DNA of 64,000 nucleotides from Yuukianura sp. NJ FZ-2021 (GCA_046563655.1 CM102283.1:9176001-9240000), one strand, 5' to 3'; counted from the stretch's first letter, positions 37,288 to 59,599 are shown. A program made the numbers and translations. The notes: a model not told the origin generated them from the sequence alone.

Positions 37288-38039
37288 ATTCAAAATCTCA
37301 AGTTTAGCAGCGTAAGCAGAAGTTTTATGCAGCTCAAGCGCAAGTTTTAGTTTTCTTTTTACTTTTTATGGTAATAGTAGCGTCCATGTCCAATTGTGTC
37401 CAAGGTACTAGCTGCAGCTTAACATTTTAATAAGTTTTAGTCTCGCACAGAATGTCGACAGTATTTTTTAGTAACACCAAGAAACTTGTCTTACTGTGGC
37501 AGTTATCAAGTTAGTTAACATTTAAGTTAGTAGTTTAGTTGACACGCTTAAGTTTAGAACGTGGGTGATAACATTTTTAATATTGATTGCATGAATTCCT
37601 TTCAGTAGGTAATTTTTTTTTAGAGGTCAAAGGTCATAGAGGTCAACAAACACTAAAATCCAAGAGCTTTCGACGACAGTGCATACAAATGCAAGAAAAC
37701 GCTTTAGAGTCACATCTAAAAACCTTGTCCCAGCTTAATAAGAGGTTAAGCAAATTTGGAAATTTAAAAAAAAAAAGAGCTCGGGCATGACAAAAAATTA
37801 ACGTAGACAATGGAAAACATTCTCCGTCAAAAAATCTTCCGTTTACTAACAACTACAACCTTAACAATTTTGTAGAAAGTTTTAACTTTTTTTCTTACTT
37901 TTGAGAGTTGTGCTCACGTAACAATTGAAAATGAAACATTCCAACAAAAACGTTTTTAAATTTTTATTTCAAACAGAAAACAGTCATAAAGCGTTCTTTA
38001 AAGTAAAGAAATTAATTTTTAACAATATTTTATTTTTTA

Positions 38040-38382
38040 TTCTAAGTTCAAATTTTTTTTGAAGTGTGATGATGGTTGTGCCACAATTTATTTCAAAATG
38101 GTGCAGAGGACAAATGGGAAAAAGTAATATTTATATCTTGATTTTAACAAAAAATTCTGTTCAGTCTTTTAGTTTTTAAATTGTACTTGTTTTAAGAAAT
38201 CTCGACAAAATACAAATATAGACAAAAAGTTAATAAATCAAATTGTTCCTACTGGATGCCATATTCCAAAGGAGCAAATAAGCAACAGGAAAGGAAATCC
38301 AACGCTTTTCTTAAGCTAGAACCTGCTTTCAATTGGGTAAGTTTTTAAATCAGTTCAATTAATTAATTAGTCTTGAATTAAG
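38040..38382 (-). repeat. Duplicated copy of the Ars2 3' UTR/3' flank lacking the TE insertions
   Basis: taataaatcaaattgttcctactggatgccata (38231) matches ~45648; atttatttcaaaatggtgcagag (38086) matches 41446; gttcagtctttttagttttta resembles 42606. Confidence 0.85.
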
Positions 38383-38542
38383 CACCTCCAATGCAACATC
38401 AATATCATGATTTCATCTTAAACACATAGATTGACAGTTTGTGGCAACAATTATCCGGCTGGGACGTAAAACCACGACTTTCGTATTTACTAAAAATTTT
38501 GACGCGTTACCTCGGCAATTTTTAAAAATTTGGAAATGTTAA

Positions 38543-39867
38543 GGCTAGTTCACACAGCGGTACTGTCCGCCCCGTTTTTTTTTTTCGCGCCGCGCCATTT
38601 AGCGGATTTAATGAATTTACTGAAGGAAGGAAATTTACCGCTGTAAGAAAATTGTCCCCAGCATGTTCTAGAAGATTAAGGATAGTGACGAATGTGCGAG
38701 AGATTCAAAATATAAACTGAAATATGATAAAAAAAAGTTGAATAAAATTTTGAAAATGAAGTAGTGAAACTTTTTCAATTAAAGAACAATTGGATCAAGT
38801 TAAATCAAACATTAGAAACCACTAAATTGTAATTGCTTAATTTTCATTTTTGATGCAAAATTTTTTCTTTAGTATTTACCATACTGTAAACGCGAAAACA
38901 TTGTGTCTTCAAATAGGTTTATTTGATATTTCCATTGGATATGCAGTGGAAGAAACATACCTCTACTAGACGAGGAATAATACGAGGCATTAAAATTTAG
39001 CGCGAAATTCGAAGAAAAAATTGAAGGTCGAAGATCGAAATTCACAAAATGTTAATAAAGTTTTGTTCATCTTTGTTTAGATTAACGAATTTTTTGAAAC
39101 CGATGCTGCTTTTCTTTTGTACGTGTTATTTTTTTTTTTATGTTTTCAAGTAACTCATACTTTTTGCACGAAGCTCCTTTCGGATTCATTACGTCTAGGG
39201 GTTCCGTCGTGCGTTTCGTTTTCGTTTTTTCTAACAACGGAAACGGCACGGAATGTTAGGCCGCAACCCGGACACGGAAACGGTCATAAAACAGATAAAC
39301 GAAAACTGAACGAAAAAAACTGTTTGAAAACGGTAAAACGGTTGAATGCATAGCGAAATTTCAGAAATTTGGTTTCATGTTCTGCCTTTCAAAAATCCAC
39401 TTCGAAGCAGGTCAAAATTGTTTGAATGGACTATAATTCTAACGTATAATTTTAATTTCGCAAAAAATCAGTACGGGTTGTCGCAAGAATGGATATTTTT
39501 CCTAGGTTTTCGGCTTGCCGTGTTTTGATTTTCGTTTTCGTTTGGTTTTTTTGCCGAAAACGGAAACGAAGCAAAAGGTACCGTTTCAAAAAATTCAAAA
39601 AACTTTTCTGTTTTGTGTTTTACACGGAAACGGTGGCAGCCCCTGGATGTGCAGCCAATTCTAACTTTAGAGTGAAAACGGCGTTGGAGTGGCACTCGAC
39701 AATCCTTTTTTAGTCTAAAATCTTTTTTGTCAATCTTAAGCTATGCCAACCATAAACAATTATAATACAAGTTGTAGTTTGTCGTATGTAAAACGGCCCT
39801 CATTTGCTAATCGTATTTCAGCGGAAATTCGCGGAAAACGGTTTGTAAAAAAATGTGTGCACCGGCC
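38543..39867. mobile_element. Harbinger-like MITE nested in the previous element
   Basis: Ends ggctagttcacac / gtgtgcaccggcc, both flanked by ttaa. Confidence 0.55.
39196..39645. mobile_element. hAT-like MITE with many AAACGG/CCGTTT motifs
   Basis: Ends taggggttccgtcgt / acggtggcagcccctg; repeated aaacgg; no TSD recognised. Confidence 0.5.
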
Positions 39868-39959
39868 TTAAAATCACACAATTTTGGTGCAAATCGCCAG
39901 GGAAAATGCACCTTTTTCTGTAAACACGAAACTCGTGGTTTTACGTCCCAGCAGCCCAA

Positions 39960-40514
39960 TTATTGTGGTCGTTTGAACTTCTGCTTGTACTCGACATACT
40001 TCTTCACTGCATCCTTCATCGTAATGGAGTCATCTTGGTTTAACACAAAAGCCTTGAAGGACAGCGTAGCCGGTGGTCCAGGATTGCACATTTCGCTACA
40101 AAATGATACTTTTGTTACAAAAACGAAAGTTTGTGTCCACAACAGTAACAACTTCCACATACCGATGATGATGAGGCGGAAAGCATGCACTGTACGGTGG
40201 CGGGTGATCAAATCCGTATTCAGGAGATTCTGGGCCATAACCGTCACCATTCATACCACGATTCCAGTTACAATCGGACCTTCCATAAAAAGAAGTGTTA
40301 CAAATACATGACAGTTGGCAATGTATCAACTCAATGCTAACCGGTCATTGGAGTCAATCCCTTGTGGCGGAAGAGCTGACGTCGGCGGAGTCAAGGGGGT
40401 TGTATCGACAGCTGAATTTGAAATAGTAGTATCGGTAGTTGTGGAACAATTCGTTGTAATTGGTAGTCTCACTGGACTTCGGTCTACACTTGGGGTTTGT
40501 CGTTTCATCTTCAT
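39960..40514 (-). CDS. Diverged Ars2 N-terminal fragment gene (3 exons, ~141 aa), gene or recent pseudogene
   Basis: Exons 40342-40514, 40163-40279, 39960-40095 splice in frame at intron positions homologous to Ars2; GPPATLSFKAFVLNQDDSITMKDAVKKYVEYKQKFKRPQ* vs Ars2 [40 protein letters not shown]. Confidence 0.75.
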
Positions 40515-40783
40515 CACTGCGAAGCAAACCGAACAAAAAAAATGACACATCCAAACATAAAGCTGACTATGCTAAAATTGAACTCGTCATTAACAATACC
40601 TTCGAAACAGTGGCGACCCAACGTTGCAATTGATTGTAGTAGGCAAAGTTTTAAAAAGGAAGACAAGATGTTTAGAAATGTTAAGCCGCCCAGGAGCAGC
40701 GATTCCGTTACGACGAACACCAAAATTGATCCAATCAACCCAACCAAGAGTAGAGCAATATAGGTTTTGCGGTTCATCGCCAT
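40514..40783 (-). CDS. Small hydrophobic ORF (MAMNRKTYIALLLVGLIG...), probable membrane module linked to the Ars2-N fragment
   Basis: 89-aa ORF with hydrophobic stretches; its TGA overlaps the ATG of the Ars2-N ORF; similar to ORF 59399-59599. Confidence 0.5.
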   Translation of the reverse strand: MAMNRKTYIALLLVGLIGSILVFVVTESLLLGGLTFLNILSSFLKLCLLQSIATLGRHCFEGIVNDEFNFSIVSFMFGCVIFFVRFASQ

Positions 40784-41274
40784 GCCTTTCCCCTTCTAGC
40801 GATTTTCAAGCGATTTTGAATTTTACTCAAGTGTAACGTGGCAATTAAACTAAATTAAACAAGCTAAACCTATTAAAAATCCGTTACCAAATTGATTTAC
40901 ATGCAGTCTGCTCACGTTTTTTTAAACAGGGTACTAGGAGGGCTCTTTTGTCTCCCTCTCCCTCAAGGGCCCTCCGGAGAAGTGAAGTTTATAACGGTAC
41001 AACTTGTACCCTTATCTCTTTCCAACTTGCTACTTTTTCCGCGTTGCTAAACCTGCTTACACACACACAAACTTAACATCAAGTCTTCCTTTACTTAACA
41101 TCAACTACTACGTCATGTCGTTGTGAACCGATTATGACAATCATGTCAATAAGCTAATTACGTAATTAACATAAGTAACCTTTATGTCGCTAATGATTCT
41201 AACGAACAGGTTTACTTCTTATACTAAAGTTCCAATTTTTTTGAATTGCGATGATAGTTGTAAGCACCATTTAT

Positions 41275-41443
41275 CATAGAGTTACCATGCCACTTTTTCG
41301 TTTTTTTTCTTTTAACTCTGTTTTTTCTTTTTTTTCCTCTTTGAGCCTCTTTGGATTTGCTTCAAAAATTTTGTTTAAAAAATGCAAATGTCCACTCTAG
41401 TTAAAAGAAAAAAAAAACGAAAAAGTGGCATGGTAACTCTATG
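41275..41443. mobile_element. 169-bp hAT-type MITE
   Basis: TIR catagagttaccatgccactttttcgtttt and its reverse complement; 8-bp TSD ccatttat. Confidence 0.9.
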
Positions 41444-41590
41444 CCATTTATTTCAAAATGGTGCAGAGAGGACAAATGGGAGAAATTATATCTTTCTTCT
41501 TAAGTAACATTTATACCGCAGAACTCAATTTATACCATTTATAATACCCATTTATTGTATCTTGATTCACAAGACCTAACAAAAACGTCT

Positions 41591-42600
41591 CACAGTGGGG
41601 CAGAATCAAAAATAACGCGCCACCGTTGTTAGGGGAAACGTGAAGTTAAATTTTGCAATTACATTAAAAATGAATGCCAAAATCAGGATTTACAAAGATC
41701 AAATCGTCCAAAAATGTCCATTACCTACAGATAACCTGAATATCGTAATAAAAACTAGACAGCATCACGTACCAAGTCCGACCGCCACTTGGCGCCACTT
41801 TACCAATTTAGTATTTTTAAGAAGGAATAAGACATGGCAACGGTGGGTCTCGTTTTGCCTCAAATTAATTAACTTTCAGGCTTAATAAGTCGTCACAGGA
41901 ATGACCTAGAAATTTGTACAATAGCTCTAAAAATTCCTTGATATTCGCAGAATAATTATTAGGGCTCAGAATTTGACTTTTAGCAGCTGAATGATACTAA
42001 AAATCCGATACAAAGGTTCAATTTTGTATAAGTATTGTATGACACAAAAAATTTGGAAATTGGCCCCTAACTATTATGCGCCATGGTCTTCCGGATTTTT
42101 AGACACCTCAAACGCATTTTTAGGTCTTATAATAAAAAAGTTATAAGACAAAACAGATGTAATTCTGACATTATTCAATAATTTGCAAATATCGGCACCG
42201 AAATCAACCGTCTCCATGGGCACAAGGTTGTTGTTGAGTCCCAGGTTGTTTGAATTCCTATTCTGCGAAAAACTTTGGTTTGTCAATCATTGGAAACAGT
42301 GCCGACTTTTGCAAGTTTGAGCAGTGATTTCGCTTTGTTACTAATGACAATGGCTGACACCAAATCGTAAACAAACGCTGCCTCTTACCCGTCCTTAACT
42401 GATTTTTGAAGTTGGTGAAAAATTTGGTGAATGGGGGGTCAGCTAGGTCACCACGCATAAAAATTGAAGGCGCATAGTGTTTTCAGTTGCTATGCCGATA
42501 GTTTAGCGATTGTTTCGCCTCCATAATTGTGTATTTTTCAACACTTAATTTGTTTCCCCCGAAACGCTTGTCGTTGTTTGTATGAATCGACCCCACTGTG
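41591..42600. mobile_element. Non-autonomous Transib-type element
   Basis: Termini cacagtgggg / ccccactgtg; 5-bp TSD cgtct. Confidence 0.85.
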
Positions 42601-43025
42601 CGTCTGTTCTGTCTTTTAGTTTTTATAGTTCATCTATTTTAAGAAGGCGGGTTTGAAATTCGCGCAAAAGTTTTATTTTTGTTTACCGTTACCCCGGTTG
42701 ACTTAAGATAGCTGTTGCGCATGTGTAACGTGTGCAACAGCAACTGCGCGAGAGTGTCTTCTTTGTTCAAAACAGGTCAATTCCTTATTTTCATTTTATC
42801 TTATGTTTAACGTGGTTTCTCTTTCGTTAATTAATTGTTACTTCCATCAATAGTGTGTAAATGGAAATCTTTTTCCTGGCAATCGAAGGAGATGATTGCC
42901 AGTACAGTGCTAACGTTTCTAGAAGAGAAAAGAAAATTTGAGAACGAAGTGAAGTTAGGACACATGAAGCATTCGGATATTCCCATAGACTATCTGAATG
43001 TGACCGATAGAACTGCCAAAACATT

Positions 43026-43992
43026 CAGTAACTCTTCGTGAAAGCAGTAAATCGTGAAAACCATGACCACTTCAGATCTTTCCGAATTTTTTCAATGTGA
43101 TAGTGCGTTAGGAAAAAAAAATTTCCCCAAAAAATCAAATTTTTAGCAGTGACCCCTGACAAGTTATCAGTGGTCAAAGTCGCCATTTTGAAAATCTTGC
43201 GTCACGCGTAACTCGGGAAGGGCACGTCCGATTGACCTCATCTTGGTGTCAAAAGAAAGGGTTCAGTGAATCCTAGACGTGTTTTTTTTCAAAATTAGTG
43301 TAAGGGCCCATGGGCCCTTCAGTATTGGTAAGTCAAAAATATCCCGATTTTTTTGATATTTTTCTTCACACAATACCTCTACATAACACGTTTGAATCAT
43401 GATGTACTACCTCCCCCTTGACCTTTAAGGGCACCCTTTGACCTCAAAGGCATCCCTTGACCCCACGAACCACCTCACGTACTTCAACAAATGACTTCTG
43501 ATACATTAAAACCTAATCATATATAATTGTTAATAGGGCATGTGCATGTGCTTATAGAAGCCCTTAAGGGTCAAGGGGTGCCCTTAAAGGTCAAGGGGGA
43601 GGTTGTAGATCACGATACAAACGTCTTATGTAGGGGTATTGTGTGAAGAAAAATATCAAAAAATCGGGCTATTTTTGAATTACCAATACTGAAGGGCCCA
43701 TGGGCCCTTACACTAATTTTGAAAAAAACACGTCTAGGGCTCACTGAACCCTTTCTTTTGACACCAAGATGAGGTCAATCGGACGTGCCCTTCCCGAGAT
43801 ACGCGTGACGCAAGATTTTCAAAATGGCGACTTTGACCACTGATAACTTGTCAAGGGTACTGCTAAAAATCTGATTTTTTGGGGAAAATTTTTTTTTCAT
43901 TAGTACAGCACATGGTAGAAATTTCGTTCATTTTAAAAAATATGATGTGTGTCACTTTTCCAAAAATTTACTGCTTTCACAAAGAGTTACTC
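43026..43992. mobile_element. 967-bp foldback (long-TIR) element
   Basis: Arms of ~420 bp are near-perfect reverse complements over ~43110-43445 / 43566-43898 and at the tips; 4-bp TSD catt. Confidence 0.9.
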
Positions 43993-44066
43993 CATTGCAG
44001 GTACGCAAGTGAAACTTAAGGTTAGGTTAGGTTAACTAACCTAACCTTTGTGAAACGACTTGGCGA

Positions 44067-44954
44067 CAGAGGTGGTAGCCTGCAGGCAAACCCTTTACTT
44101 TTGCGCAGGTTGCAGGCCAACCTGCAGCACGTGCAGGCGGGCTCAACCTGCGGTGGATTACGTTGCAGGCTGCAGGCGAAACAGGTTTTGATTTGGAAAT
44201 GTTGCAGGATCGGGCGTGGTTCAGCCTGCAATGCTCTGCAGGCGCCTGCAGTTGGCCTGCAGGCTGCGGGTTGTCGCATATTCCAACAAAACTTTTCCTA
44301 TTCTCAGGAAACTATTTGCACAAGAAAAGATAGGAAACGAATAGAAAAATTACTTTGAAATGTTCAAGCAACATTAAAGTCACAAGGAACTATGCAAACT
44401 TTTTGCTGCACATTAGTTGCACTATCAGAGGCCTTTAGCGTCAATAAATAATAAATCCGGAGGCAGAAATATGGTTAAGTAAAGTTGGCGTTACACTTGC
44501 CCGTGTAGACAACGCAAGATTTGACAGTATAACTTTGGCGGATTCTTTTATGTGCAAGGTTCAAGAATTTTTAAAAGTTAAACAAACCAAAAGTAAGGTA
44601 GCAGTGTCGTAAAACAATATATTACTAGGAATTTTTCTCCCTACGTGTTTGGAAAGGACAACCGACAGATAATCGAGGGTGATTGAGTAATTGCCATTAT
44701 ACGCAAACGAATTTACGCCGTAGTTGTAAGTGTATATTAAAATTTTCGTACATTACAGTTCGTATAAAAAAAATTGCAGGCTAACTGCAGGCAGCCTGCG
44801 CAGGCTGCAGGCTGGCCTGCCGAAGACCCTTGCAGGTGCAGGCGTGCAGGCTGCCGATTTTCTATAATTTTGCGGGCTGCAGGCGTGCAGGCTAAAAATT
44901 CCTGCAGTGCAGGCGGGGCGGGTTGGGGAAAATAGTTGCAGGCTACCACCTCTG
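44067..44954. mobile_element. Non-autonomous hAT element with CTGCAG-rich subterminal repeats
   Basis: Perfect 18-bp TIR cagaggtggtagcctgca; 8-bp TSD cttggcga. Confidence 0.92.
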
Positions 44955-45823
44955 CTTGGCGATGCACGGCAAACCCTTTACTTTTTATCTTTTACGTAGG
45001 TCAGTATTAGAACTGTCGAACGAGTCAAACGGGAACTGAAGAGGTGGGATTACGTTCTTCCTCCGAAACAAAAACGGACACGCAAAAAGAGGATCGAAGT
45101 GGACAGCTTCACGGAAGGCGTAATTAGACGGGCCGTTTTATTCGCATATTCCAACAAAACTTTTCCTATTCTGGACTATTTGCACAAGAAGTTACAGGAA
45201 GATGCGAATTTTCCAAGAATGTGCCGAGCAACATTGCACAAAATTAAACTTTTGTCCATGGGTAACCTTCAGAGGAATTTAGCGTCAATTTCAAATTTAC
45301 CTATTCTGAGTACGAAAAATTGGTCGCGCCTTAACTCAACCCGTCAAATTTTGCTTGCGTTGCTACTAGGAACAGCGCAAAAATAAATTTGAAACCCGCC
45401 TTCTTAAAATAGATGAACTATAAATTTTAACTTGAATCAGAAACAATTTGTAGAAATCCAGACAAATAGTCAAGGTTGCTATAGCAACCAATTGTATTGC
45501 TACAAAAAATTGCCATGGAAAAGAAGGCTGACGTGAGTCGGTTTCATTTTTGAAAATTTTCGCAAAAAAACGTAGTAACCGGACTTAACGAATAACCTCT
45601 TGTAGCAATCAACAATTTGCTTGTTTACCCACCTTGCAAATAGTTATTAATAAATCAAATTGTTCCTACTGGATGCCATAAAAAGGAGCAAGAACAAGCA
45701 ACAGGAAAATTGATCGAACGTTTCAATCGGCTAATTTTTTGAACCAATTCAATTAATTAATTAATCTTGAATTAATGTATTAATTTTTTCTAGTTATGGG
45801 AACGTTGTTTAGTGTTCTGAAAT

Positions 45824-48800
45824 CTAAAAATCGTCCGCATCTTGCGGAGCATCCAAATCCCTGTAGCTGATCATCGATCTGTTGCCACCACGTCCGCGGA
45901 AGTCTGGACGTCCTCTTGGTGGTGGAGCGTTGTAGCCACCTCCACCGTAGTAGCGCGGTGGACCGCCGTAGCCAGGTCCGCCACCGTAGCCACCACCATA
46001 GCTAGAGCATACCATAACATTAACATAAACCTAACCTATGAAAAATTATACTTCCAGAATGTCAACTTACGGCGGAAATGGCGGCGGATAGTCTCCACGT
46101 TCTGGCATGAGCGGCTCTCGTCGTGGAAAACCGCGATCCATTCCAGCAGGCGGACCATCTCTGCGGTCCGGTGACTTTGGACGTTTTGAATCCCGCAAAT
46201 AGTTGTTGAAGTAAGCCACCTAGAAAACCAAAATCAAGTTAATACTGCCAAGTATTTTTTAAAACTTCAATTCTATCCACAACATAGTACTGACCTCCTT
46301 TTTAACTTCCTCCAGTTTTTCAACATGCTTGTTTTGAATGTGCTTTCGAACAAACTCTGGCCCCTTGAACTTCTTTCCTGACAGTGGACACAGCCACTTG
46401 TCTTTTCCAAGTTCCTGCGTATTCGCTGTGATGAACTTCTCCACTTCAGTGTCTTCGTCTTTACTTCCAAGGGCTCTGCACTCTTCGTCCGTCAACGGCT
46501 CCGACTTTTGGCAGAAAGTCACAATCTTTTGCTCAAAGTTCCGATTATAATCTTGCAACTCTGGCAAAACCACCTAAAAGACAGAACAATTAGAAACGTT
46601 CAAATATTCATTGGGACTTCTTTTTTTTTTCAAAATCAAACTTCCATTGAGCTTACATTGGAAGCGGGTGGAAGTCCGCGACCATGCAAAATCCCAAGTC
46701 GATTGGGCATGTCATCTTCATATGGATACTCGGCATGGTTGTAGTAATCCAAACTGTGCACAAATCGCAAGTAGAAAATAAGACGATCCAGAACTTGAAT
46801 CAACTCTTCGTCCCTAGAATTCAAAAAATTCAAAATTTCAAAATTCAACAACATCAAACAAAATTCTCAGAATGCCCCACCTTTCAATTGAATTTCCCTT
46901 CTCAGAATTGCGAGACTCTCCAGGCTCTAATTCTCCGTCACTTCCACCACCCATTGCCAGCAATTCCTCTTCCTCCGCCGATGCTTCCTCAATCAAGTAG
47001 TCCGTGATATTTTTCAAAACAGGATTAGTCGAATACACTCCAAAACTTTCCTTCTTTCCCGCCTCTGGATCTTCATCCCACAAGTTCCACTTAGAATCCA
47101 AAAATTGAATGACTTGTGCTGCCAACCGGATGTCATTTCGAACAATCGTTTTGTGCGGAGTAATTCCATTGACAGTACGAACTCTGCGTGTCAAGTCACG
47201 ATTCACAATTGCTCCCAGTTCAGCATCTTTCATTCGAATATTGTTCAATTGCCAACAGATTTCTGAAAAAAGAGAATAAGATTAATCAAAATCAGACAAA
47301 TTCCACTGCACTGCAACTGCTTAAAATTTTTCGAAATGTACCTTTGATGTTGACATTCCGCTTAAACGTGACCCAGCCACGACGGTACCACCGACGTTCG
47401 GGCTGTGGATCGGCCAAAGCCGATCGCAGGAATCCATCATGCTTCAAGCAAATTCCGTCCACTTCGGCTTTCGTCACACTCGGCGGAATATTTCGCAGGA
47501 AGACAGACGAAGTTTTATGAAGTTGTGGAAGTTCCTCTATTTCTGGTTCTTCTGCCTTCCGTTTCTCTTCAACTTTTGGTGGTGGTTCCTGTGCACCTTG
47601 TCCAGATTCTTCGTCATCCAGAGACACAACAGACTGGGGCCCACCAGAATCCGCACTGATCCGTTTCTTCCTTGGAGATTCGATTTTAGACTGCTCCTCT
47701 TCTCCAGTATCTTGTTTATCTTTAATCAAAATGACTTCAGTTAGTTAAGTTTAAGTTAACTTTAAAAAAATGATCACTGCAAATCTCACCTTCTTTGCCT
47801 TCTTCGTCAGACTCACTGGCTGCCCCATCTTCATCGCCTGCTGCTGATTTCGTTTTCTTCTTCTCCGTTCCGTTCTCCTTGCTCTCTTCTTTTTCCGATT
47901 CCGAAGTACGGATTTCTTTGATTGGCGATGAAATGGAAATTGATGGACGATTGGATCTCGGCTCGTCACTCAGAACTTTTGCTGCTAATTCATCACTTCC
48001 GTCTTCCAAGCGAATGACGTACCAGTCCATCAACTTCGTCAACTTTTCGGCCTGCGAAGCGTCCAAAGTGATTCCCTCGAAACGCTTCTTGTCCATAAAC
48101 TCCATGAAAATGTTCACCCGTTTCTAAAAAAAAACGAAAATTTTCAAAGTAATGTCACTTTAATTATTAATGGAATGCATTTTGACTAGTAACAGCTGAT
48201 CACCCACCTTCAGATTTTGGTATTGCTCTTCCTTCTTCTTCGTGCTCTCGTCTGGATGGTACTTGTTCTTAAACCTGAAGTAAGAAATGATACAAAAGTA
48301 ATTAGTAATAGAATAAATTATATAATTCCTACATTAATCATGGAGATATAACATTATTAATTGAGACGACGTAACAATTAACATTAGTATTGCATCATTT
48401 CATCTTCATCATTCATGTAGTACACAGAGGATTGGCAGTTTGTGCTTGATCATATTCATCAGTATTTTTCCGAAGTGGCTATCGTTGAAATCGCATCATC
48501 ATCATCAATCGATTAGTTATGCCGGGAATCGAGTCTGACTAAATAAATTAAGTGACAATTAACGTTACAATCGCCTTACCAGTTGTTTCAAGAACCCTCT
48601 CACGCACAAAATTCGTAACTTGCTTGTCGTATTATGTCACTTGTTTATAAAAATGAATTCTACTACGGAATAATAATTTTCAATTTCCAATTTTGCTGTA
48701 GCACTGATTAAAATTGAAGAGTTGCGCACTAATCAAATATCAGATAGAATCGGGAGACCACAAAATAACAATCAGATGACAAAATCTGACTGGAGGCTTC

Positions 48801-49624
48801 CGTTGCGGACGTGCTGCTGTTCAGTTAACAATTAGAAATAAATCTTAACTCAGGTTCAAGTTACGATCAGAAGGGAAATTAGTTGGATTGGGATGACGGA
48901 AATCATTGAAGTAAGGAACACAAAGGAAATTGATTTGAAACTTACCATTCCTCGTCGCGATGTGCTAGAAAGAACTCATTTAATTGTTGTCGTTTGAACT
49001 CCTGCTTGTACTCGGCATACTTCGTGAGAGCATCCTGATCCGAAATGGAGTCATCTTGGTTAGACAACCAAGCTTTGAAGGACAGCATTGCAGGCGGTCC
49101 ATGAGGGTCCATTTCGCTAAAAAACAAGACTTTCGTTGCAAAAACGTTTATGTAGAAAACTAGACTGGTTACTAATGCTGCTACTTACCGATGATGATGT
49201 GGGCCAGGAGGAGGGGGGAAGTATCCACCGTGCGGCGGCGGATGGTCGTATCCGTATCCAGAAGATTCTGGACCATAACGATCACCACCCATACCTCGAT
49301 CTCCCCAGTCGTTCCTAGGTCGTTTATGTGGCGGACTGAATTCATGTGGGCCTTGCCTTGGTGGTCCACCTAGTCGGTAATCAATTTGTCGCGGTGGGGG
49401 ACCACGATTCCGGTTCCAATCCGAGCCTCCTCTACAAAGAAAACGTAAATGAGTTCAAATACTAGAAAGTAAACGAATTATACACGTAATCCTAACCGGT
49501 CATTCCAGTCATCTCGTCGACGATCATCCGGTGGAGGACGACGACTTGGTTCACGGTAATCGCTGCGTTCTCCACGGAATTTATCTCGTCGTTTCCGATC
49601 ATACTCGTCCTCAGAGTCTCCCAT
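45824..49624 (-). CDS. Ars2: Serrate RNA effector molecule homolog Ars2 (intact parent)
   Basis: Exons 49497-49624, 49189-49431, 48946-49116, 48208-48274, 47790-48123, 47342-47719, 46881-47262, 46657-46813, 46295-46573, 46071-46219, 45824-46001; [46 protein letters not shown]. Confidence 0.95.
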
Positions 49625-51261
49625 TGTTTCTGCTGTAGTTCCGTTCGTCAAAGGGTCACCTAACAAAGATAAGAGATTAGAAATTAACAACTACGCTACG
49701 CCAGTTTTGCAGTAACTTCTTTATTACTTGTTTTTGACGTTATTCCGTCTTATGTCCAACGACACGGCGACTATCACGTGTATGACCGTCGTGTAAGTAA
49801 GTCAAGAAGTATCAAATTGTCGATGATAATTTAGTAAATCAACTCCAAAGTCCAAGTCCAAAGCCAAAGCCAATAAATTCACAAAACAACTGAAAATTGA
49901 AGCGAAGAGTGGGGAGTTTCTGTTTCGGTAAAGGGTAAAGTAAAAGCAAGACAATCGATCTGTTGTTAGAGCGCGGGGCAAAGGGGTGGGGGGCGCTTAG
50001 TTTGAAAAGGCATGTTTTGCAATGGCACTACGAAATTCCAAAATCGAATACAAAAAATATCAGCTGTTATCGCATTTCTCGAATTTGTACTTACATTTTT
50101 ATAAACAAAAACATTCAGCGTCTGTAAAAAATAATAAGTATAACAAGGTTAGTCCTCTTATTAATTCATGAAACAGGGTTATATCAATTTTCTCAAACCA
50201 TCTAAAAATAAAAAATAAGAAAAGCTTGAGGTAAAAATGACAATTATTGTTGTTTTGTCGTTTCGCAATAGTGCGAAACAAGGAATGCCAATACCATTTT
50301 GCACTTGAGTGAGGGGAGGGGAGATATTTTTCATATCAGCACCTGTTTAGGCACACTTTTATAGTTTTCCTTGTTATCTTCCCGGGTAAGCTTAAGTACG
50401 AGGTGTGAAAATCGAAGTGCCCAATCAAGCCAGTATATTTAAAGTGGGTAGCAACGGGGTGAGTGATAGGGGATAGGAAAATGGGAAGTATAAAAACAGG
50501 GGGTTTACATTAGTCAAAAAAAAAAGTTGTTAAACTTTTGGTATTGGTGGGGGGTTGGTTCTTGTTGTGGCTTGTGGCTAGCGGCAAATGTTGCAAAAAC
50601 TGTATCCGAATCCGAAAGCTGAGTGACTCATGTTTTTTTTTCTTTTGAATTTGCAGTCTGAGATCATCCTTTGACAGGAAAGGAGAGCGAGACTAGCTGA
50701 ACTTTTCTTTTTTTGACATCAACAAGAAGGAAAATTAGCAAAAACGTACCGGCCAGGGCCAACGCCATAAAAACACTTCAGAATCAGAAGACAAATAAAG
50801 GCAATCCTCCTAAGGTAAGAGGTGTTAGTATTGAAACTGACATTTTTTGTTAAGCTGATAAGAATTAACTGGGTGTGTACTGGACCGAGTCATTTGGCAA
50901 CCAACACTCATTTTGGTATTTTGTGGTGAGGTAAAGGTGATGGGGAATTGGAAGTAACATAATTATTGTTTGATTTGATATGCTTTTTCTGTTTTGACTT
51001 TACTAAAAGTTGAGTTCATTCTCAATTCTGACCTCTGAGAGGTCAACTTCCTATTTCCTGTTAATTTTGGAGTTGTTTTAATTTTCATCTGTTTTGGCCC
51101 CTTAGTTCCAGCACCAGTTTGATTGCTATAATCAATCGCTGCTTTTTTGCACTCAATCAGCATCGTTTGGTTTTTGGTTTGCTTGGATTCAGCATTCTTA
51201 CGTCCATACTTCGTTGACAACTGACAAGATACTTCCGGCATCCGGTTGTCGAAACTCAGCG

Positions 51262-53856
51262 ATGTCACAAGAACCAGCACCGGCTTATGCCAATCTTCGT
51301 ACCTTCTGGAAAGCAAGTATGTATCTTCCCGGGGTTATGAATTTGGGCAAACTGCTTAACCTTCGGGAGTACCATCCGTTCCATGGAGTACATCCTCAGG
51401 CGAAGTCGAATACTGGCAGCATTTTGATTAATGTTGCATTCCGGAAACTTGCTTCTTTTAGTTTTATTGCGTTGTGCTCGCGCTTTTAACCTTTATAATT
51501 TTGTCATGATTCTCGCTTCTTTACTACTAGTGCTTGTGTTTAACGTTCTTAACTCACTGTATCTATTTCAAAGGAAAATTTCGGTCTACTGCTCTTCCGT
51601 TACAGTTAACCGCAAGAAACGAACGGCTACTTCTTAAGTTCTCAATTTTCCGCTTGAAGGTTAACATTGCCAAAGTAATCTTCGAAGTTATAATGTTATG
51701 CTTACGGGTGTTTTTGATTTTATATCCGGATAATCCTAAAGTATTTTTATGATTTTGATTTTGTTTTATTTGTAACAGAGTCCGACAAGGGTGAACCCGA
51801 ACCTTCTCCGAAGAAAATATCAGCAACTTTAACTTCCAAGTCACCGAAAACTTCAACTTCATCTCGAAACATGGGAGGTAATCTGATGAACTTTAACATT
51901 TTTGCAAATTACTTAGTGCATCATTCAATATCCTCGTTAATTGAAAATTTTGAAAGTAAAAACAGGAAGCACGACAAGCGACAGATTTTTTCTGCTTCTG
52001 TTTTTTAATACTTGAACTCAATAAGCCCCGTTCTGATTGATATTTTCTGTTTTTCACAGACTTAGCTCCATCCGCTTTGGAATTTGACCAAGAAATCGTG
52101 GGCGTCCACTTGGCTCAATTCCTCAAGTCAGCTCAGCAACTCGGAGGAGAAATTGCAGAACATGCCACTCTTGTGCAAAAAGCTTTCAAGTAAGTCACGT
52201 CACTTATCGTTATGTTCATTTTTCAAGACTTTAAATTCTTATTTTATTGAATTTTCCTCCTTTCAGTGCTCAAAAGAATTTCTTGAATGTCGCCACTCGT
52301 CATGCCAAGCCAGATGACAACACTTTGCAAAACTTGCTCTCGGATACGTCCAACGCCATCTCTGAGATTCAAAGTTACCGTGAGAAAAGACGGTCGAGTC
52401 CAGTATTTAATCACTTGTCTGGAGTGTCTGAAAGTATTCCAGCACTTGCTTGGGTCATGGTGGTAAGCCAGCATTCAGCATTCACTTCAAGTACTTCCAG
52501 CGTTTCCAGTATTTTCGTCATCTAACAAATGATACTGCTTCCAGGCACCAACTCCTGGTCCACATGTCAAGGAAATGAACGATGCTGGCCAATTTTACAC
52601 CAATCGTGTCCTGAAAGACCACAAAGACAAGTAATTGATCATCGTTTCGGTTTCATCAATTCTCAATTGATTGAGTTGATTTATGTTAATGTCAATTTTG
52701 AAATTTCAGGCCAGGACATGCGGAATGGGCCAAGTCATGGGTTGAACTTCTAGTTGCACTTCAAGCCTACGTCAAGAAAAACCACACAACTGGGTTAGTT
52801 TGGGGCAAAGAACCATTGACAGGTAAATAAGTTCAGTAATATACTGGCAGCATATTTTATACTGGCAGCACATTTGACAATTGACAATGCCCAACTTTTA
52901 TTCCTGGAGCAGGACCCGTCCGTGCCGGTGGAGCTCCCCCTCCTCCCCCACCACCCACCTATGACCTTGACGATGTCCAGAACTTGAACATTTCTGGAGG
53001 TTCAGATGACAGAGCCGCCCTGTTTGCTGCCTTGAATCAAGGCGAAGGAGTAACCAAGGGACTCAAGAAAGTTAGTGCTGACCAGCAGACGCACAAGAAT
53101 CCGAACCTCAGAGGCGGAAGTACTGTTCCGGCCAAGGAAAGTTCAAGTACTGCCCAAGTATTGAAAGCACCTTCGGCAGTATCGAAGCCAGCGAAGTTTG
53201 CCTTGGAAGGGAAAAAGTGGTGTGTGGAGTACCAGATTGGGCAGAGGAGTTTGACCATTGACAAGGTGGAAATGAACCAGGTTGTGTATATGTTTGGATG
53301 CAAGGAGTCTGTACTCAACATCAAAGGAAAACTCAATTCAATTGTCATCGACTCCTGTGTCAAAACGGCCGTTGTTTTTGACTCACTGGTGTCCTCTATT
53401 GAGTTTGTCAACTGCAAGGACTGTCAAACGCAGGTACGATTCTAAAAAAAAAATAATAATTTTTTTTGTGTTGTGAATTGTGATTTTAGTTTTCAAAATT
53501 TTTGAAAACTTTGTTTCAGGTCATGGGCAAAGTTCCAACAATCGCGATTGATAAAGTTGATGGCCTTCAAATATACTTGAGCCAGAACTCTCTGGACGTT
53601 GAAATCTTCTCTTCCAAGTCATCCGCCCTCAATGTGATGATACCCAAAGGATCAACTGGAGAATACGTAAGTTAATTAACTTATTTAATTAAACATTTAA
53701 ATTAATTAAACAATTCTCTAAGTTATTTAAGTTATTCAAGGTCTTAACTCTCGTGTTTATGTTTAGTCCGAGACTCCTATCCCTGAGCAATTCAAGACGG
53801 TTGTCACAGGCAAGGGCGGCCTTGTCACTACACCTTCGGAGACTGTTGGTGTGTAA
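51262..53856 (+). CDS. CAP: Adenylyl cyclase-associated protein (CAP/capulet); first two exons tentative
   Basis: [27 protein letters not shown], poly-Pro, WH2 [23 protein letters not shown] repeats, PIPEQFKT; stop at 53856. Confidence 0.92.
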
Positions 53857-54200
53857 AGATCAACTTGTACTGCCAGCACATTTGTCACAAATTGATCACG
53901 ATCTATCATGTAAAGAGTGACTCCTCAGCATTACAGTTGAATCGATTTTACATCATGGGATGTAAGGTAAAGTTTGTACATTGGAAAAGAAGCAATTTCT
54001 GTGTAAAAAAAATTAGGCAAAGAACCAAAAATCTTCAAGTCTGCTGTGCAAAATTTTTCAATGAGTTGAGTAAAGTCATCGATTGAGAAAACGCTTCTGT
54101 GATGGGAATCCTTCGGCGGGAGAAATGAAATATAATGTTTTGTTTGAATAGTGTTTATAAAGTTTATGCAGAATCTTGAATTTTTTTTAGAATGAAGCTA

Positions 54201-55034
54201 TAGTTCATCTAAATTACAAAGAAAGTTTTCAAAATTTTGTTATTTTTCGATTTTGTTGAAAATTACGTCAGTTGACGTGAGGAGCAAGCGCTGCCGGTTG
54301 TAACAAACAGCCGTGTCTTTGGGAAATGCTTTCTTGCATTTTAAAAATAAAAATTTCACTTTTTTTTTTTTTAAAAATTTCCAATTCAAATTAGAAGAAG
54401 ATAATTTCTAATTTCCACTTTTGATAGATTACACTAATTAAAATTAAATTAAATTCCTTACAATTTACGTCGGAAAAATCGCACAAGCGGGGTCCACTTA
54501 AAACGCTATAAAAATTTCAAAATTTTGACGGCTGTTACGTATTTGGTAGTAGCATTTTTGTCGCCACGAAAACGCTACTAAATGCGAGAAATGAGAATAA
54601 AATCATTTTTTGGCAAATATTACACCAAGAGATAAGAAAAGTGCCGTAATAAAATGGACACAAAAATGGCATATTTAGCTACGCATTTGTCGCGGCGTAG
54701 TAAGTGCCAAAATTGCGTACCACATCATTTTTGCCGTCAAAACTAATGAACCTGCTTTTGGACCATTTCGGCCAAATGACACCATTTCATCGTAAGAAAA
54801 TAAATTTCAGAGGTCATTTTCGCTCCCTTCGAGGTCAAATCTCAAATTTCATCAAAATCTAAAATAGCCAAGTCGTGCCTACTCCTCACATGTTCGGCAA
54901 TAAAATAAAATTTGTCATACGTGGATTCACCTGGGTGCACAGTTCATTTACTGCCTTACGCCAACCTAAGAATGTAATTGAAGTTGCTACGGGAAACACA
55001 ATTTGAAAACCTTCTTTGTAATTTAGATGAACTA
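54201..55034. mobile_element. Non-autonomous TIR element with TAGTTCATCTA termini
   Basis: tagttcatctaaattacaaagaaagttttcaaa / tttgaaaaccttctttgtaatttagatgaacta; TA on the left side only. Confidence 0.8.
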
Positions 55035-55062
55035 ATAGAGTATATTAGAGTTTTTTTTTATA

Positions 55063-55280
55063 TACAGTGAGCGCCAGCTAAAACCATACATCCAGAATTG
55101 TTTAATTTTGCAACTGTGGAGGGAAAACATGTGAAATTACGCGATTTGCAAAAATTTCGCCATAAGAATGTAACTGAAGTTTCACCATTCTGAGTTACGT
55201 TTCCCGCCATGTTTACCAAATTTTCACCTCGTTTCTACGGAAACAAAATAGGGGTGTATGGTTTTAGCTGGCGCTCTATA
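55063..55280. mobile_element. ~215-bp MITE
   Basis: 22-bp inverted repeat gagcgccagctaaaaccataca / tgtatggttttagctggcgctc in TA context. Confidence 0.7.
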
Positions 55281-55628
55281 TTTAGTTTATAACTTTTATT
55301 TTGTAAACTGAATACATTACGGCTCATGTGACGATACATAATTCGTAATACACAGTAGGAACTTGATTTAACATGAAAAACTAGGAGGATAGATCGAGTT
55401 TTGAATGAACTCAAGACTTGACATTTAGAGCTAAACTGTAGTAGTAGTAGATTCATTATTTAGGAAAAGTGTTAGAATTTACGATAAATGTAATGTACAG
55501 GAAACACGATCCACCGAATTCTTCATTCTTACTTCAAACACAGAACGTTGTCATCTGTTTCCATACTTTACTGAGATAATAATAGTATTGATCATGACAG
55601 CGGTTTTCTCTTGTCGCCTGTCGCGTTC

Positions 55629-58600
55629 TTAGCTATCTCCTGTTGGAGTTAATTCAGTGACAGAATCTTGGGAGTCACTTACGACATCAGAAGCAGACGG
55701 TGCTTCAGTACTCGTCTCTGCTTGGATAGCGTTGATGAACGCTTCCAAGTTTCCATTTTGTGCAGCCGTGACAGCATCGGCGGAGAATCCAAACTGCGCG
55801 ATCTGTGGGCCAAGTTGTCCAGTGGGGAAAGCAGCACAGAACGCACTCAATGCACTCTGAAACTGCGGAGATTTAAGGGTCTCCTCCACATGTTGAGCCG
55901 CTCCTTCGGATGTCTCGGCTCCACCGAATCGAGGAAGAAGTGGGAGCACCTCGTCCCCATCTTCAGTGGTTTCTTGAGATGTCTCGACTCCACAGAATTC
56001 ATGAAGAAGAGGAACCAATTTCTTTTTCTGGACGGTGTTGGGACAGGCCGTAATGCGCTGGATGGCATCACTGCTCACATCAGAGTCCAAATCAACTGCA
56101 AAATTAGTTGAAAACGTTAATTAATCAAAGAAAGGATTATTGTTGATTAATTACTTCGCTCCTTAACTTTACCTTGAACTTCGGGAAGAGTAGTTTGCAT
56201 TCGAGTGAGAATGGACTGGAGATCTTCTTCTTTATCTTCTAGTTGAATGGGCCCAGGAGCATTGGCGGCAGGAGTCTTCGGAGCTACCGGGGTATTGGGT
56301 TTCTTCACTTTCAGAAGAGATTGTGGTTTAGGTCCAGTGCCCGTACCCGTACCACTACCACCATCACTGGAAGCAGTTTCAGTTGCAGTCGAAGCAGCTC
56401 CGTCAGTACTGCTACTTCCTCCTCCTCCTCCGCCAAGGTTGGCCAATCCCGGAGCAAGCTGGTTCAGTTGCGCCAATAGTCCGGATCCTTAAGACAAAAA
56501 CACAGGAAACAATTCAATAGCCGTTGCTGAAGCAAGCTTTAAGCATTTACTATGTGAACTTACCTCCCATTTCACTCATTCCACCTAGCAGTTGCATCGG
56601 CTGAGACTGACTCATACTACCGACCAAGTTTTGCATCTCCTGTTCCGATGCACTCGGCGTCACACTGCCACTGGCTGCTCTTCCGCCTGATCCACCAGGG
56701 TTGTTCAAATTTTCATATTTCATTAGAGGTTGTTTAGACAAAAGATCGAACGAAAGCAGGACGTGCGGTCCTTTAGGGGCCATGAGGGGTGGACCGAAAT
56801 CAAGTGACATTGGCCGTTTTGGATCACGCAAATAGTTGTTGAAGTAAGCCACCTACCAAACCAAAATCAAGTTAATACTGCGAGGGGTTGTTTAAATTTT
56901 GGCATTCCACTCACCTTCTTTTTGACTTCCTCGATTTGTTCGACATGCTCGGTTTGAATGTGATTTCGAACGGACTCAGGCTCATTGAAAACGTTTCCGG
57001 AAAGGAGACACTCCCAGTTGTTATTTCCATACTTCTGCGTACTCGCTGTGATGAACTTTTCAACTTCAACATCTTCGTCCATACTGCCTAGGGATCTGCA
57101 CTCTTCGTCCGTTAATGGTTCCGACTTTTCGCAGAAAGTCGCAATCTTTTGTTCAAAGTTTCGTTTATAATCTTGCAACTCCGGCAAAACAACCTAAAAC
57201 ACAGGTCACAGGTAAAACACGTTCAACTGACTGGCAGAGTTCTTTCAGAATCAATGTTGGCTTTTTAAAACTTACATTAGAAGTGGGTGGAAGTCCGCGA
57301 ACATTCAAAATCTCAAGCCGATTGGGCCTGCCATCTTCGTAAGGATACTCGGCATGGTTGTAGTAATCCAAACTGTGCACAAACCGCAAGTAGAAAATAA
57401 GACGATCAAGAACTTGAATCAACTCTTCGTCCCTAAAATTCAAAAAAATTCATTTTCAAAATTTCAAAATTCCAAAACCTATGAAAAAAAAAAAAGAAAT
57501 CTCAGAATGCCCCACCTTTCAATTGAATTTCCCTTCTCAGAATTGCGAGACTCTCCAGGTTCCAACTCTCCGTCACTTCCGCCACCCATTGCCAGCAATT
57601 CCTCTTCTTCCGCCGATGCTTCCTCAATCAAGTAGTCCGTGATATTTTTCAAAACAGGATTAGTCGAATACACACCAAAACTTTCCTTCTTTCCTGCCTC
57701 TGGATCTTCATCCCACAAGTTCCACTTAGAATCCAAAAAGTGAATGACTTGTGCTGCCAAGCGAATGTCATGGCGAACAATCATTTTGTGTGCAGTAATT
57801 CCATTGACAGTTCGAACTCTGCGTGTCAAGTCAGGAAAGACAACGGCTTCCAGTTTGGCACCTTTCACTTCAATGTTGTTCAACTGGCGAGAGATTTCTA
57901 AAAACAGAACAAAAATGATGAAAACAAACATAAATTCTAATTGTTTAGAATTCTTTTAATGTTGGCACCTTTGATGTCAACGTTCCGTTTAAATGTGACC
58001 CAGCCATGACGGTACCATTGACCGTTGACCTCTTGTGGATCGGTCAAAGCCGAACGCAGGAACCCGTCATGCTTCAAGCAAATTCCGTCCACTTCGGCTT
58101 TCGACACACTCGCCGGAATATTTCGAAGAAAGACAGACGAAGTTTTATGAAGTTGTGGAAGTTCCTCTACTTCTGGCTCTTCTACTTTCCTTTTCTCTTC
58201 AACTTTTGGTGGAGCTTCCTGTGCACCTTGTCCAGATTCTTCGTCATCCAGAGACACAACAGACTGGGGCCCACCAGAATCCGCACTGATTCGTTTCTTC
58301 CTTGGAGATTCCACTTTAGACTGCTCCTCTTCTCCAGTATCTTGTTTATCTTTAATCAAAATGAATTTTTAGTTAGTTTAAAATAACTTTTCAAAAAAAT
58401 TATTACTGCTTCAGTCACCTTCTCTGCCTTCTTCATCTGACTCACTGGCAGCTCCAACTTCATCGCCCGCTGAATGCTTAGTTTTCTTCTTCTCAGTTCC
58501 GTTCTCCTTGCTCTCTTCTTTCTCCAATTCCGAAGTACGGATGTCTTTGATTGGGGATGAAATGGAAATCGATGGACGATTGGATCGAGGCTCGGTGCTC

Positions 58601-59256
58601 AGAACTTTGGCTGCGAATTCATCACTGTCGTCTTCCAGCCGAATGACGTACCAGTCCATCAACTTCGTCAACTTCTCAGCCTGCGAAGCATCCAAAGTGA
58701 TTCCCTCGAAACGTTTCTTGTCCATAAACTCCATAAAAATGTTCACCCGTTTCTAAAAAAAACGAAAATTCTCAAAGTAATGCGACTTTAATTATTAATG
58801 GAATGCATTTTGACAAGTAACAGTTGATCACCCACCTTCAGATTTTGGTATTGCTCTTCCTTCTTCTTCGTGCTCTCGTCTGGATGGTACTTGTTCTTAA
58901 ACCTGGAGTAAGAAATGATACAAACAAAAGTAATTAGTAATTGAATAAATTATATCATTCCTACAGTAATCATGGAGCTATAACATTATTAATTGAGAAC
59001 AACGTAACAATTAAATTAATGTTAGTATTGCATCATTTCAACTTCATCATTCATGAAGTACACAGACGATTGGCAGTTTGTGCATGATTATATTTATAAT
59101 TTAACCATATTTACAATATTTACAATTTGACCATTAGGGAATATAATTGTAACACATAAACTGCTTTGAAACTTACCAATCTTCATAACGATGAGCTAGA
59201 AAGAAGCCATTGAGACGCGCGGTAGTTGAAATTGCAGGGTCCGGAGGGGGTGCCAT
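55629..59256 (-). CDS. Chimeric Ars2(core)-Rpn13(C-terminal DEUBAD) fusion gene, ~916 aa from ATG 59256
   Basis: Exons 59177-59256, 58836-58902, 58419-58752, 57969-58349, 57516-57897, 57276-57432, 56915-57193, 56564-56852 (junction exon), 56173-56487, 55629-56095; all GT-AG, phases compatible, no internal stop. Start and last exon are uncertain. Confidence 0.85.
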
Positions 59257-59398: not shown

Positions 59399-59599
59399 TT
59401 AAAATATCTTTGAGAAATAATTTTTACACTCATTCAGAATGACACCCAACACGGCGAATGCCGTAGCCCCACAAACAAACGAGCAAATGGTTTTGAACTG
59501 TGACGGCTCCAAAAATACTTCGATCAGTATATAAAATGTTAAGGGAATTACAAATAAACAAACGAGACACACGAACGAACACAGGGTTCTCCGGTCCAT
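59399..59599 (-). CDS. Small two-helix hydrophobic ORF; possible first exon of the chimera
   Basis: MDRRTLCSFVCLVCLFVIPLTFYILIEVFL...ICSFVCGATAFAVLGVILNE; phase-1 donor at 59427 fits acceptor at 59295. Confidence 0.5.
   Translation of the reverse strand: MDRRTLCSFVCLVCLFVIPLTFYILIEVFLEPSQFKTICSFVCGATAFAVLGVILNECKNYFSKIF

Follow-up and report, generated by a model that had tools for sequence, protein, structure and literature searches.

How can two incomplete copies of one gene, lying 19 kb apart on either side of the intact original, come to end and begin at the same codon? This question is raised by a 64,000-nt stretch of the genome of the springtail Yuukianura sp. NJ FZ-2021 (GCA_046563655.1 CM102283.1:9176001-9240000); the whole stretch is called the window here, and positions are counted from its first letter. 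The window carries an intact parent Ars2 (SRRT) gene (49624 to 45824), which has 11 exons and 826 codons (826 aa) in the splice model and adjoins the gene for CAP, the adenylyl-cyclase-associated protein. It also carries a front fragment of Ars2, named N' (40356 to 39960), and an Ars2-Rpn13 chimera of 916 codons (59256 to 55629), whose Ars2-derived part is named C' (56804..59211). Ars2, both derived copies and Rpn13 lie on the minus strand, and CAP is the only relevant gene on the plus strand. All gene models are conceptual and come from a frame-preserving search for GT..AG splice sites on the DNA alone. An earlier annotation, the sequence-only reading, had described the two derived copies as complementary halves of Ars2 produced by fission of one duplicate (or by reciprocal losses from two copies), and had suggested that their products might reassemble in trans. 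In our analysis, one tandem duplicate of Ars2 was probably broken at codon 168/169; the chimera appears to have been kept, and the front piece looks like a relic.

The two copies meet at one point of the parent. By blastn and Smith-Waterman alignment, N' at 40268->39957 corresponds to parent 49309->48977 with 73% identity, and by tblastn it matches parent aa 87-168 (58-66% identity) and nothing further. C' at 59211->56804 corresponds to parent 48980->46171 with 85.7% identity, introns included; by tblastn it begins at aa 168/169 and reaches about aa 748. In an ungapped three-way register, the last N' match is parent 48983 (…KRPQ) and the first C' match is parent 48980 (AAT…), so that the common break site (48980..48983 in parent coordinates, minus strand) falls between codons Q168 and L169, which read CAACAA, TTA, AAT. 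The breakpoints thus coincide within about 3 nt and at the same codon, as the sequence-only reading had proposed, and the 40-kb copy indeed ends in a TAA (39962-39960) that occupies the place of the parent TTA (L169). The formal alignment gave no overlap between the two regions of homology; 0-2 nt are unassigned, and at most 6. The upper value applies if the near-palindromic CAATAATTG at the end of N' belongs to an adjacent inverted-repeat element, in which case N' would end at ~48987 and the gap would be <=6 nt. The term "halves" was only partly apt: the copies are complementary, but N' is not the whole N-terminal half and C' lacks the last ~90 residues, so that together they leave aa 1-~40 and ~736-826 of Ars2 uncovered. 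Other Ars2-like stretches in the window were only chance matches (tblastn, E<=10). For two independent breakpoints to fall within 3 nt of each other in a gene of ~3.8 kb, we estimate a chance of ~7/3800 = 0.002.

Two other origins of the shared boundary were considered at this site. An ancestral intron at the break was ruled out: the junction has no GT in N' and no AG in C', and exon 3 is contiguous in both outgroup loci (L001 and L002, described below). For a piggyBac-type insertion, TTAA is present in the parent at the break, and a clean TTAA duplication was found in neither copy.

The 40-kb locus remains collinear with the parent beyond the break. An Ars2 3' untranslated region (3'UTR) remnant (38223..38381, minus strand) matches parent 45637-45775, with 38381-38230 aligned to 45775-45647, and its homology stops sharply at GAATTAA. 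Further downstream, the flank of the copy (38029..38198, minus strand) follows the parent flank in two blocks (42603-42645 and 41211-41501), 38198-38156 matching 42645-42603 and 38139-38029 matching 41501-41211, with a small palindromic insert in the parent-side copy. In that duplicated flank, a small element at 41275-41443 (39-nt arms, 95% complementary and 91 nt apart) forms an interruption. The segment missing from the 40-kb locus is parent 48980->45776, most of which (48980->46171) is now found at 59 kb; no remnant of the C-part was detected at the 40-kb locus (tblastn, E<=10). The collinearity of the two flanks therefore indicates a tandem duplication. On this alignment, the 40-kb locus is demonstrably a tandem duplicate without its middle, and the copy would once have run from approximately exon 1 through the 3'UTR into the flank.

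The place of the missing middle is taken by an inverted-repeat element of ~1.5 kb (38445..39965, no strand assigned) and by a filler of 63 nt (38382..38444) between this element and the 3'UTR remnant. No source of the filler was found within the window, and a search of the 38-40 kb filler for Rpn13 N-terminal remnants, which a reciprocal exchange might have left, found none. The arms of the element (38445-38556 and 39965-39854) have an identity of 73% across 112-114 nt, which rises to 83% within the first 52 nt. They share a 17-nt core that is exact at both ends; a search of the window with up to 4 mismatches found only one unrelated 4-mismatch match elsewhere (62096). The ~112-nt arms with this exact core have the form of the terminal inverted repeats of a non-autonomous DNA transposon, and the element appears to be transposon-like, resembling a miniature inverted-repeat transposable element. 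Its 8 open reading frames (ORFs) matched no Pfam family and no transposase was found. Further copies were found neither in the window beyond its own arms nor in L001 or L002, a weak negative that is not genome-wide. The outer arm end lies at 39965, next to the break at 39962, and the far arm carries CAACAATTA, identical to the nine parental bases at the break. The arm identity (73%) is close to that of N' and the parent (73%); if the arms were identical at insertion, their divergence would be about that of two neutral lineages as old as N'.

The ages of the two pieces were compared by using two outgroup loci, the metagenome contigs L001 and L002, which are the 2 confirmed loci among 583 pattern matches. 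Both contain full-length, parent-type Ars2 with contiguous exon 3 and no Rpn13 sequence. In the springtail-like L002, CAP lies upstream and head-to-head with Ars2 as in the window (L002 1-970 versus window 51980-52612); from this adjacency, the middle copy is therefore the ancestral one. The sequence-only reading had offered synonymous divergence as a check on a common origin, similar values for the two pieces being expected from one duplication. By the Nei-Gojobori method, the pairwise synonymous divergence (dS) from the parent is 0.45 (95% confidence interval, CI, 0.23-0.77) for N' (78 codons) and 0.32 (0.25-0.40) for C' (559 codons), and the intervals overlap. Neither very different dS nor overlapping or gapped homology, which the sequence-only reading had named as grounds for rejection, was observed. 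The corresponding nonsynonymous divergence (dN) is 0.19 for N' and 0.068 for C', with dN/dS ratios (omega) of 0.42 (0.20-0.98) and 0.21 (0.16-0.28), respectively. The Rpn13 part of the chimera gave similar figures against the parent Rpn13 (263 codons; dS 0.305, 0.21-0.42; dN 0.047; omega 0.15, 0.09-0.26).

Changes were then polarised with L001, at codons with at least five of nine locally identical residues (458/566 for C' and 47/82 for N'). At third positions of the C region, 25 changes are unique to the parent, 30 to the copy and 179 to L001, and the parent and the copy do not differ (P 0.59); in the N region, the numbers are 2, 6 and 18 (P 0.29). The 179 L001-unique changes in 458 codons, compared with 25 in the parent and 30 in C', therefore place the duplication after the split from L001. 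At first and second positions, the copies have changed far more than the parent: 3 parent-unique, 43 copy-unique and 70 L001-unique changes for C' (P 5e-10), and 0, 14 and 1 for N' (P 1e-4). Branch estimates used 445 (C) and 46 (N) codons, after 13 and 1 ambiguous codons had been dropped. The parent branch has a dS of 0.119 (omega 0.03) in the C region and 0.111 (omega 0) in the N region, and the copy branches have a dS of 0.132 (omega 0.35, CI 0.21-0.55) for C' and 0.164 (omega 0.98, CI 0.30-4.8) for N'. These estimates suggest that both derived pieces postdate the split from the species of L001 and that their ages are indistinguishable within error, with low power on the N side.

The break within 0-6 nt, the overlapping dS values, and a 40-kb locus that retains the 3'UTR and flank without the C-part support the fission of one Ars2 duplicate with moderate confidence. 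The following course is proposed. As the sequence shows, a tandem duplication first placed a second copy immediately downstream of the parent, reaching from approximately the end of exon 1 across the 3'UTR and into the flank; this duplication postdates the divergence from the nearest relative compared. The copy may then have suffered a single break within exon 3, where or close to where the 1.5-kb inverted-repeat element is now found, and an end of this element may have supplied the break. Everything between this break and the middle of exon 10 would next have travelled 19 kb upstream, by transfer or as a copy, to the point where two tandem repeats of the Rpn13 3' part join; the architecture that results can be read directly, and the mechanism might be template switching during replication or the capture of a fragment that had been excised. 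A stretch of ~395 nt, absent today from both loci, would have been lost. The later fates are visible in the substitution patterns, in which purifying selection appears to have kept the chimera while the front piece, left behind with the 3'UTR remnant, apparently drifted neutrally. The complementarity of the two copies would then probably represent the two sides of one break and not joint working.

Several observations weigh against this course of events. The order on the coding strand is permuted: C' precedes the parent and N' follows it. Simple insertion into a single copy is therefore excluded, and a move or copy step must be assumed. The right ends do not match, because the match of C' ends at parent 46171 and that of the 40-kb locus begins again at 45775, and the ~395 nt in neither locus comprise the rest of exon 10, intron 10, exon 11 and the start of the 3'UTR. 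No trace of the inverted-repeat element was found beside C', and neither flanking inverted repeats nor element remnants around the chimera rose above noise. The outer letters of the element allow three readings: they could be Ars2 sequence, a continuation of the inverted repeat, or a 7-nt direct repeat (ATAATTG) seen at both element ends. The site is near-palindromic, and the same letters both extend the inverted repeat and match CAACAATTA. If ATAATTG is a target-site duplication, the element arrived after N' had joined the 63-nt filler and did not cause the break.

The dating carries reservations of its own. The dS of N' was calculated from 78 codons, of which filtering left 46-47, and its interval is wide; the divergence of C' is patchy. 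The dS of C' ranges from 0.08 to 0.54 in 50-codon windows, and its identity to the parent ranges from 57% to 97% in 150-nt windows, the lowest being the first window, which spans a large intron-3 deletion. The parent and C' share an identical run of 81 nt (P=0.0015 by permutation). In the region 48208-48290 of the parent, matched to 58836-58918 of the chimera, exon 4 is identical at 67/67 positions within this run; intron 4 is 94% identical, in a range of 75-94% for the introns in general. The parent and the chimera have thus likely exchanged sequence by gene conversion, which may have blurred the age of C'; the unconverted parts of C', with a dS of 0.4-0.5, resemble N'. Finally, the models of Ars2, N' and the chimera were all derived from DNA only.

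Some of these difficulties would be eased if two separate Ars2 copies, or the parent and one copy, had each been truncated in exon 3 at a hot spot, with the C-side deleted at 40 kb and separately copied to 59 kb. Such a hot spot might be a site favoured by transposons (CAATTAA, which is AT-rich and near-palindromic) or the end of a resident element prone to repeated breakage. The inverted-repeat element is indeed located at the break, and both ends of the 40-kb deletion are AATTAA-like (CAATTAA in exon 3 and GAATTAA in the 3'UTR). Moreover, copying of C', rather than its excision, would more readily account for the permuted order, and the right ends of the missing and the relocated segments lie ~395 nt apart. 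Nevertheless, we regard two truncations as unlikely. Reciprocal, non-overlapping boundaries are expected from one break, whereas an insertion with target duplication plus two events tends to leave an overlap; the dS values are indistinguishable, and the vicinity of C' is free of element remnants. The coincidence estimated above as ~0.002 would rise to a few per cent, again by our estimate, if only TTAA-like sites were available. The break of one duplicate therefore remains the preferred account of the common boundary.

The fate of N' bears on the proposal that the two products work together. The fragment consists of the end of exon 1, intron 1, a shortened exon 2, intron 2 and exon 3a. Significant homology starts in the last ~15 nt of exon 1 (40263-40356 versus parent 49409-49511, E 5e-7), whereas the remainder of exon 1 gives no significant match (local score 36.5, compared with 26.0 +/- 4.4 and a maximum of 42.5 for shuffles). 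A loss of the start codon plus a frameshift in N' exon 1 was considered, and it was dropped because the homology to the exon 1 body is not significant. The parent ATG has no counterpart in N', and the sole candidate ATGs (40550 and 40514) lie in the upstream sequence (40357..40550, minus strand), which is not demonstrably Ars2-derived. From these, a conceptual ORF of 153 or 141 codons can be assembled with GT..AG introns at 40341-40280 and 40162-40096, and its first ~50 codons are not Ars2-like. Two of the three frames are open upstream of N', and the openness of its start region therefore carries little weight. The frames of both copies are open and spliceable, as the sequence-only reading had noted, in the sense of conceptual models (141 or 153 codons for N', 916 for the chimera); the ORF of the chimera appears intact, and N' seems to have a conceptual ORF only, with its ATG in non-homologous sequence.

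Within the homologous part, N' has lost ~105-108 nt of exon 2 in frame, between two ATCG(T/A)GGT repeats, and exon 2b has three indels, each a multiple of three. The acceptor of intron 1 is displaced. The 82 homologous codons would be free of stops by chance in 17-28% of neutral simulations. In 47 comparable codons, 12 amino-acid changes fall on the N' branch and 0 on that of the parent, in accordance with the branch omega of 0.98. Substitutions also occur within a 12-residue stretch that is identical in the parent, L001 and L002 except at one position and now reads YVEYKQKFKRPQ. Against the SERRATE_Ars2_N profile (PF12066), the N' exon matches positions 1-31 of 110 only (E 5.9e-5, below the cutoff). 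These features suggest that N' looks like a near-neutral relic and not like one half of a two-part protein.

A functional two-component Ars2 would require that both the N' ORF (141-153 codons) and the chimera are expressed, with N' supplying the first part of the N-terminal leg in trans. In one form of this idea, an N' microprotein of 141-153 residues would dock onto, or compete with, a truncated chimera that brings the UCH37-binding domain to the RNA-sorting partners of Ars2; if true, the lineage of this springtail would possess an Ars2 module of its own, split and rewired. The N-terminal leg of human ARS2 is known from structures (PDB 6f7p, 6f7j and 8pmp), and the break maps after residue 37 of the crystallised fragment 6f7p_A, so that the two pieces would be parts of one fold. 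The GT..AG pairs of the conceptual spliced ORF and the three in-frame indels of exon 2b are also consistent with a coding N'. These points are outweighed by the neutral omega, the 12 versus 0 changes, which reach an otherwise near-invariant stretch, the non-homologous start region, in which two of the three frames are open and the parental ATG is absent, the displaced intron-1 acceptor, the considerable chance of a stop-free frame, and the match to 31 of 110 profile positions. The suggested reassembly in trans was thus not borne out, and a working two-component Ars2 is very improbable, as is the docking or competing microprotein. An assembly artefact with collapsed or misplaced haplotypes is still harder to credit, because divergence of the copies from the parent amounts to 14-27%, a level seen between paralogues and not alleles, because their introns, indels and flanks are distinct, and because the junctions lie within long unique sequence.

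The chimera, in which the other side of the break is preserved, has 9 introns and joins a new start of 14 residues, Ars2 residues 169-~735, a linker of 32 codons, and the Rpn13 linker and UCH-binding domain. The new coding start (59212..59256, minus strand) begins with the ATG at 59256; it is novel, and no source of the C' 5' flank was found within the window. Just upstream of this ATG, an 80-codon open frame with two hydrophobic stretches (59399-59641, minus strand) matches no Pfam family; it could be due to chance, or could be a 5' exon or a gene lending its promoter to the chimera. C' extends from exon 3b to the middle of exon 10 with 7 introns kept, and it ends at 56804 (parent 46171, ~aa 735), so the last ~90 Ars2 residues are in neither copy. 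The linker (56708..56803, minus strand) has 96 nt, is in frame and lies inside one exon between the Ars2 and Rpn13 parts; at the protein level, it has a weak similarity to Ars2 aa 736-748 (tblastn). Rpn13 sequence follows from 56707, which corresponds to 62007 of the parent Rpn13. This Rpn13-derived part (55629..56707, minus strand) comprises the linker region, the UCH-binding domain (RPN13_C), 2 introns, a 25-residue insert and the stop. The insert, in the last exon (55674-56020, minus strand), partly repeats the neighbouring sequence and matches the parent Rpn13 at 61267-61334 twice in self-comparison.

The parent Rpn13 (ADRM1) lies at 62586 to 61024 on the minus strand, and was located by tblastn with the Rpn13 orthologue P0001, which has both the Pru domain (PF04683) and the UCH-binding domain (PF16550). 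The parent contains the Pru-domain exons and RPN13_C. Its 3' part forms a tandem duplication of ~1 kb, in which 62007->61060 recurs at 56707->55674; the two repeats are separated by 1.85 kb of sequence, followed by C' and the 96-nt linker. The chimera has no Pru domain, and P0001 residues 1-118 match only the parent locus (62586-62071, tblastn). The UCH-binding domain is present in the chimera (PF16550, E 8.7e-17, 61.7 bits versus a cutoff of 39.3), as is the ARS2 domain (PF04959; exon 9', E 1.7e-22, 81 bits versus a cutoff of 30). The PF12066 domain is incomplete and starts at about position 32 of 110.

The structure of the chimera has been maintained. All introns, 7/7 from Ars2 and 2/2 from Rpn13, keep GT..AG at homologous places; the introns carry many indels, whereas the exons have in-frame length changes only. 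Of 3000 neutral simulations, 0.07% (d=0.09) or 0% (d=0.13) left the 564 Ars2 codons free of stops (P<0.001). The omega of the C' branch (0.35) is higher than that of the parent (0.03). Two 50-codon windows, approximately parent aa 419-468 and 669-718, evolve fast (dN 0.21-0.22); here, in exons on the RNA recognition motif side and the zinc-finger side, the chimera has often replaced residues that the parent, L001 and L002 share. Taken together, the chimera probably is, or was until recently, a protein-coding gene under purifying selection. It was not found in other species; the search with the junction exon among longer proteins returned one of 120 candidates, the normal Rpn13 orthologue P0001, from a collection that apparently does not include the species of the window. 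Likewise, no Ars2-Rpn13 fusion appeared among the literature matches listed on Ars2, Rpn13 and chimeric genes.

Compared with canonical Ars2/SRRT, the chimera has retained the ARS2 domain and the greater part of the sequence of the N-terminal leg, whereas it lacks residues 1-168 (including PF12066 positions 1-31) and the last ~90 residues. Like Rpn13/ADRM1, it keeps PF16550 with an omega of 0.15, and unlike Rpn13/ADRM1 it lacks the Pru exons, which serve ubiquitin and proteasome binding. It is the most promising part of the locus; if expressed, it would tie a nuclear RNA-sorting scaffold to the biology of UCH37.

The locus is a fresh instance of an already known type of event, namely gene fission and chimera formation. 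In the monkey king family of Drosophila, gene fission reportedly occurred by duplication and complementary degeneration (Wang, Yu & Long 2004, as summarised in PMC3258039). As in that case, an intact parent is retained (here the CAP-adjacent Ars2 of 826 codons), and the derived loci contain complementary, non-overlapping parts of it (here aa 87-168 and 169-~735). In the monkey king type, two full duplicates each lost a part, whereas the present evidence favours one duplicate broken at one position; such a duplicate would fit the retained 3'UTR and flank at 40 kb and the equal ages better than two full duplicates. A second difference is that only C' is constrained here (omega 0.35) and N' is near neutral (0.98). 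Recombination mediated by repetitive elements has been described as a route to new genes in Drosophila (PMC2211543). The present chimera resembles new genes assembled from partial DNA duplicates, some of which have repetitive elements at their junctions, as intron-containing pieces of two neighbouring parents are joined in one frame near these parents, with a repeat at one break; it differs in that the parents are Ars2 and Rpn13 and in that the element is situated at the break on the donor side and not where the chimera is joined. The locus thus provides a clean, datable case of a duplicate broken at a single position, whose pieces met opposite fates, and in which the exact complementarity of two fragments is a sign of common origin and not of common function.

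Other features of the window concern the parent gene and its surroundings. The plus-strand CAP gene (51980-53445 and beyond) was identified by a CAP_C match and by its synteny in L002, and is the ancestral head-to-head neighbour of Ars2. Intron 5 of the parent Ars2 has two candidate acceptors, 47734 and 47719. A protein search with the Ars2 exons gave 540 proteins with E<=0.001 among 993 candidates; among the best 120 of these 540, the best named relative is a Folsomia candida 'Serrate RNA effector molecule' (67% identity, exon 7'). Downstream of the parent, 44026-44991 has long overlapping open frames on both strands, rich in Ala, Gln, Leu, Arg and Cys, and resembles repeat DNA; the one ORF scanned there (44026-44358) matched no Pfam family. 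By self-comparison of the window, the spacer between the parent Ars2 and N' is rich in repeats. Within it, ~965 nt at 43027-43991 match their own reverse complement at 84%, which suggests a large palindrome or foldback element. Downstream of the chimera, a further small element (54201-55034) has 41-nt arms that are 93% identical and lie ~750 nt apart.

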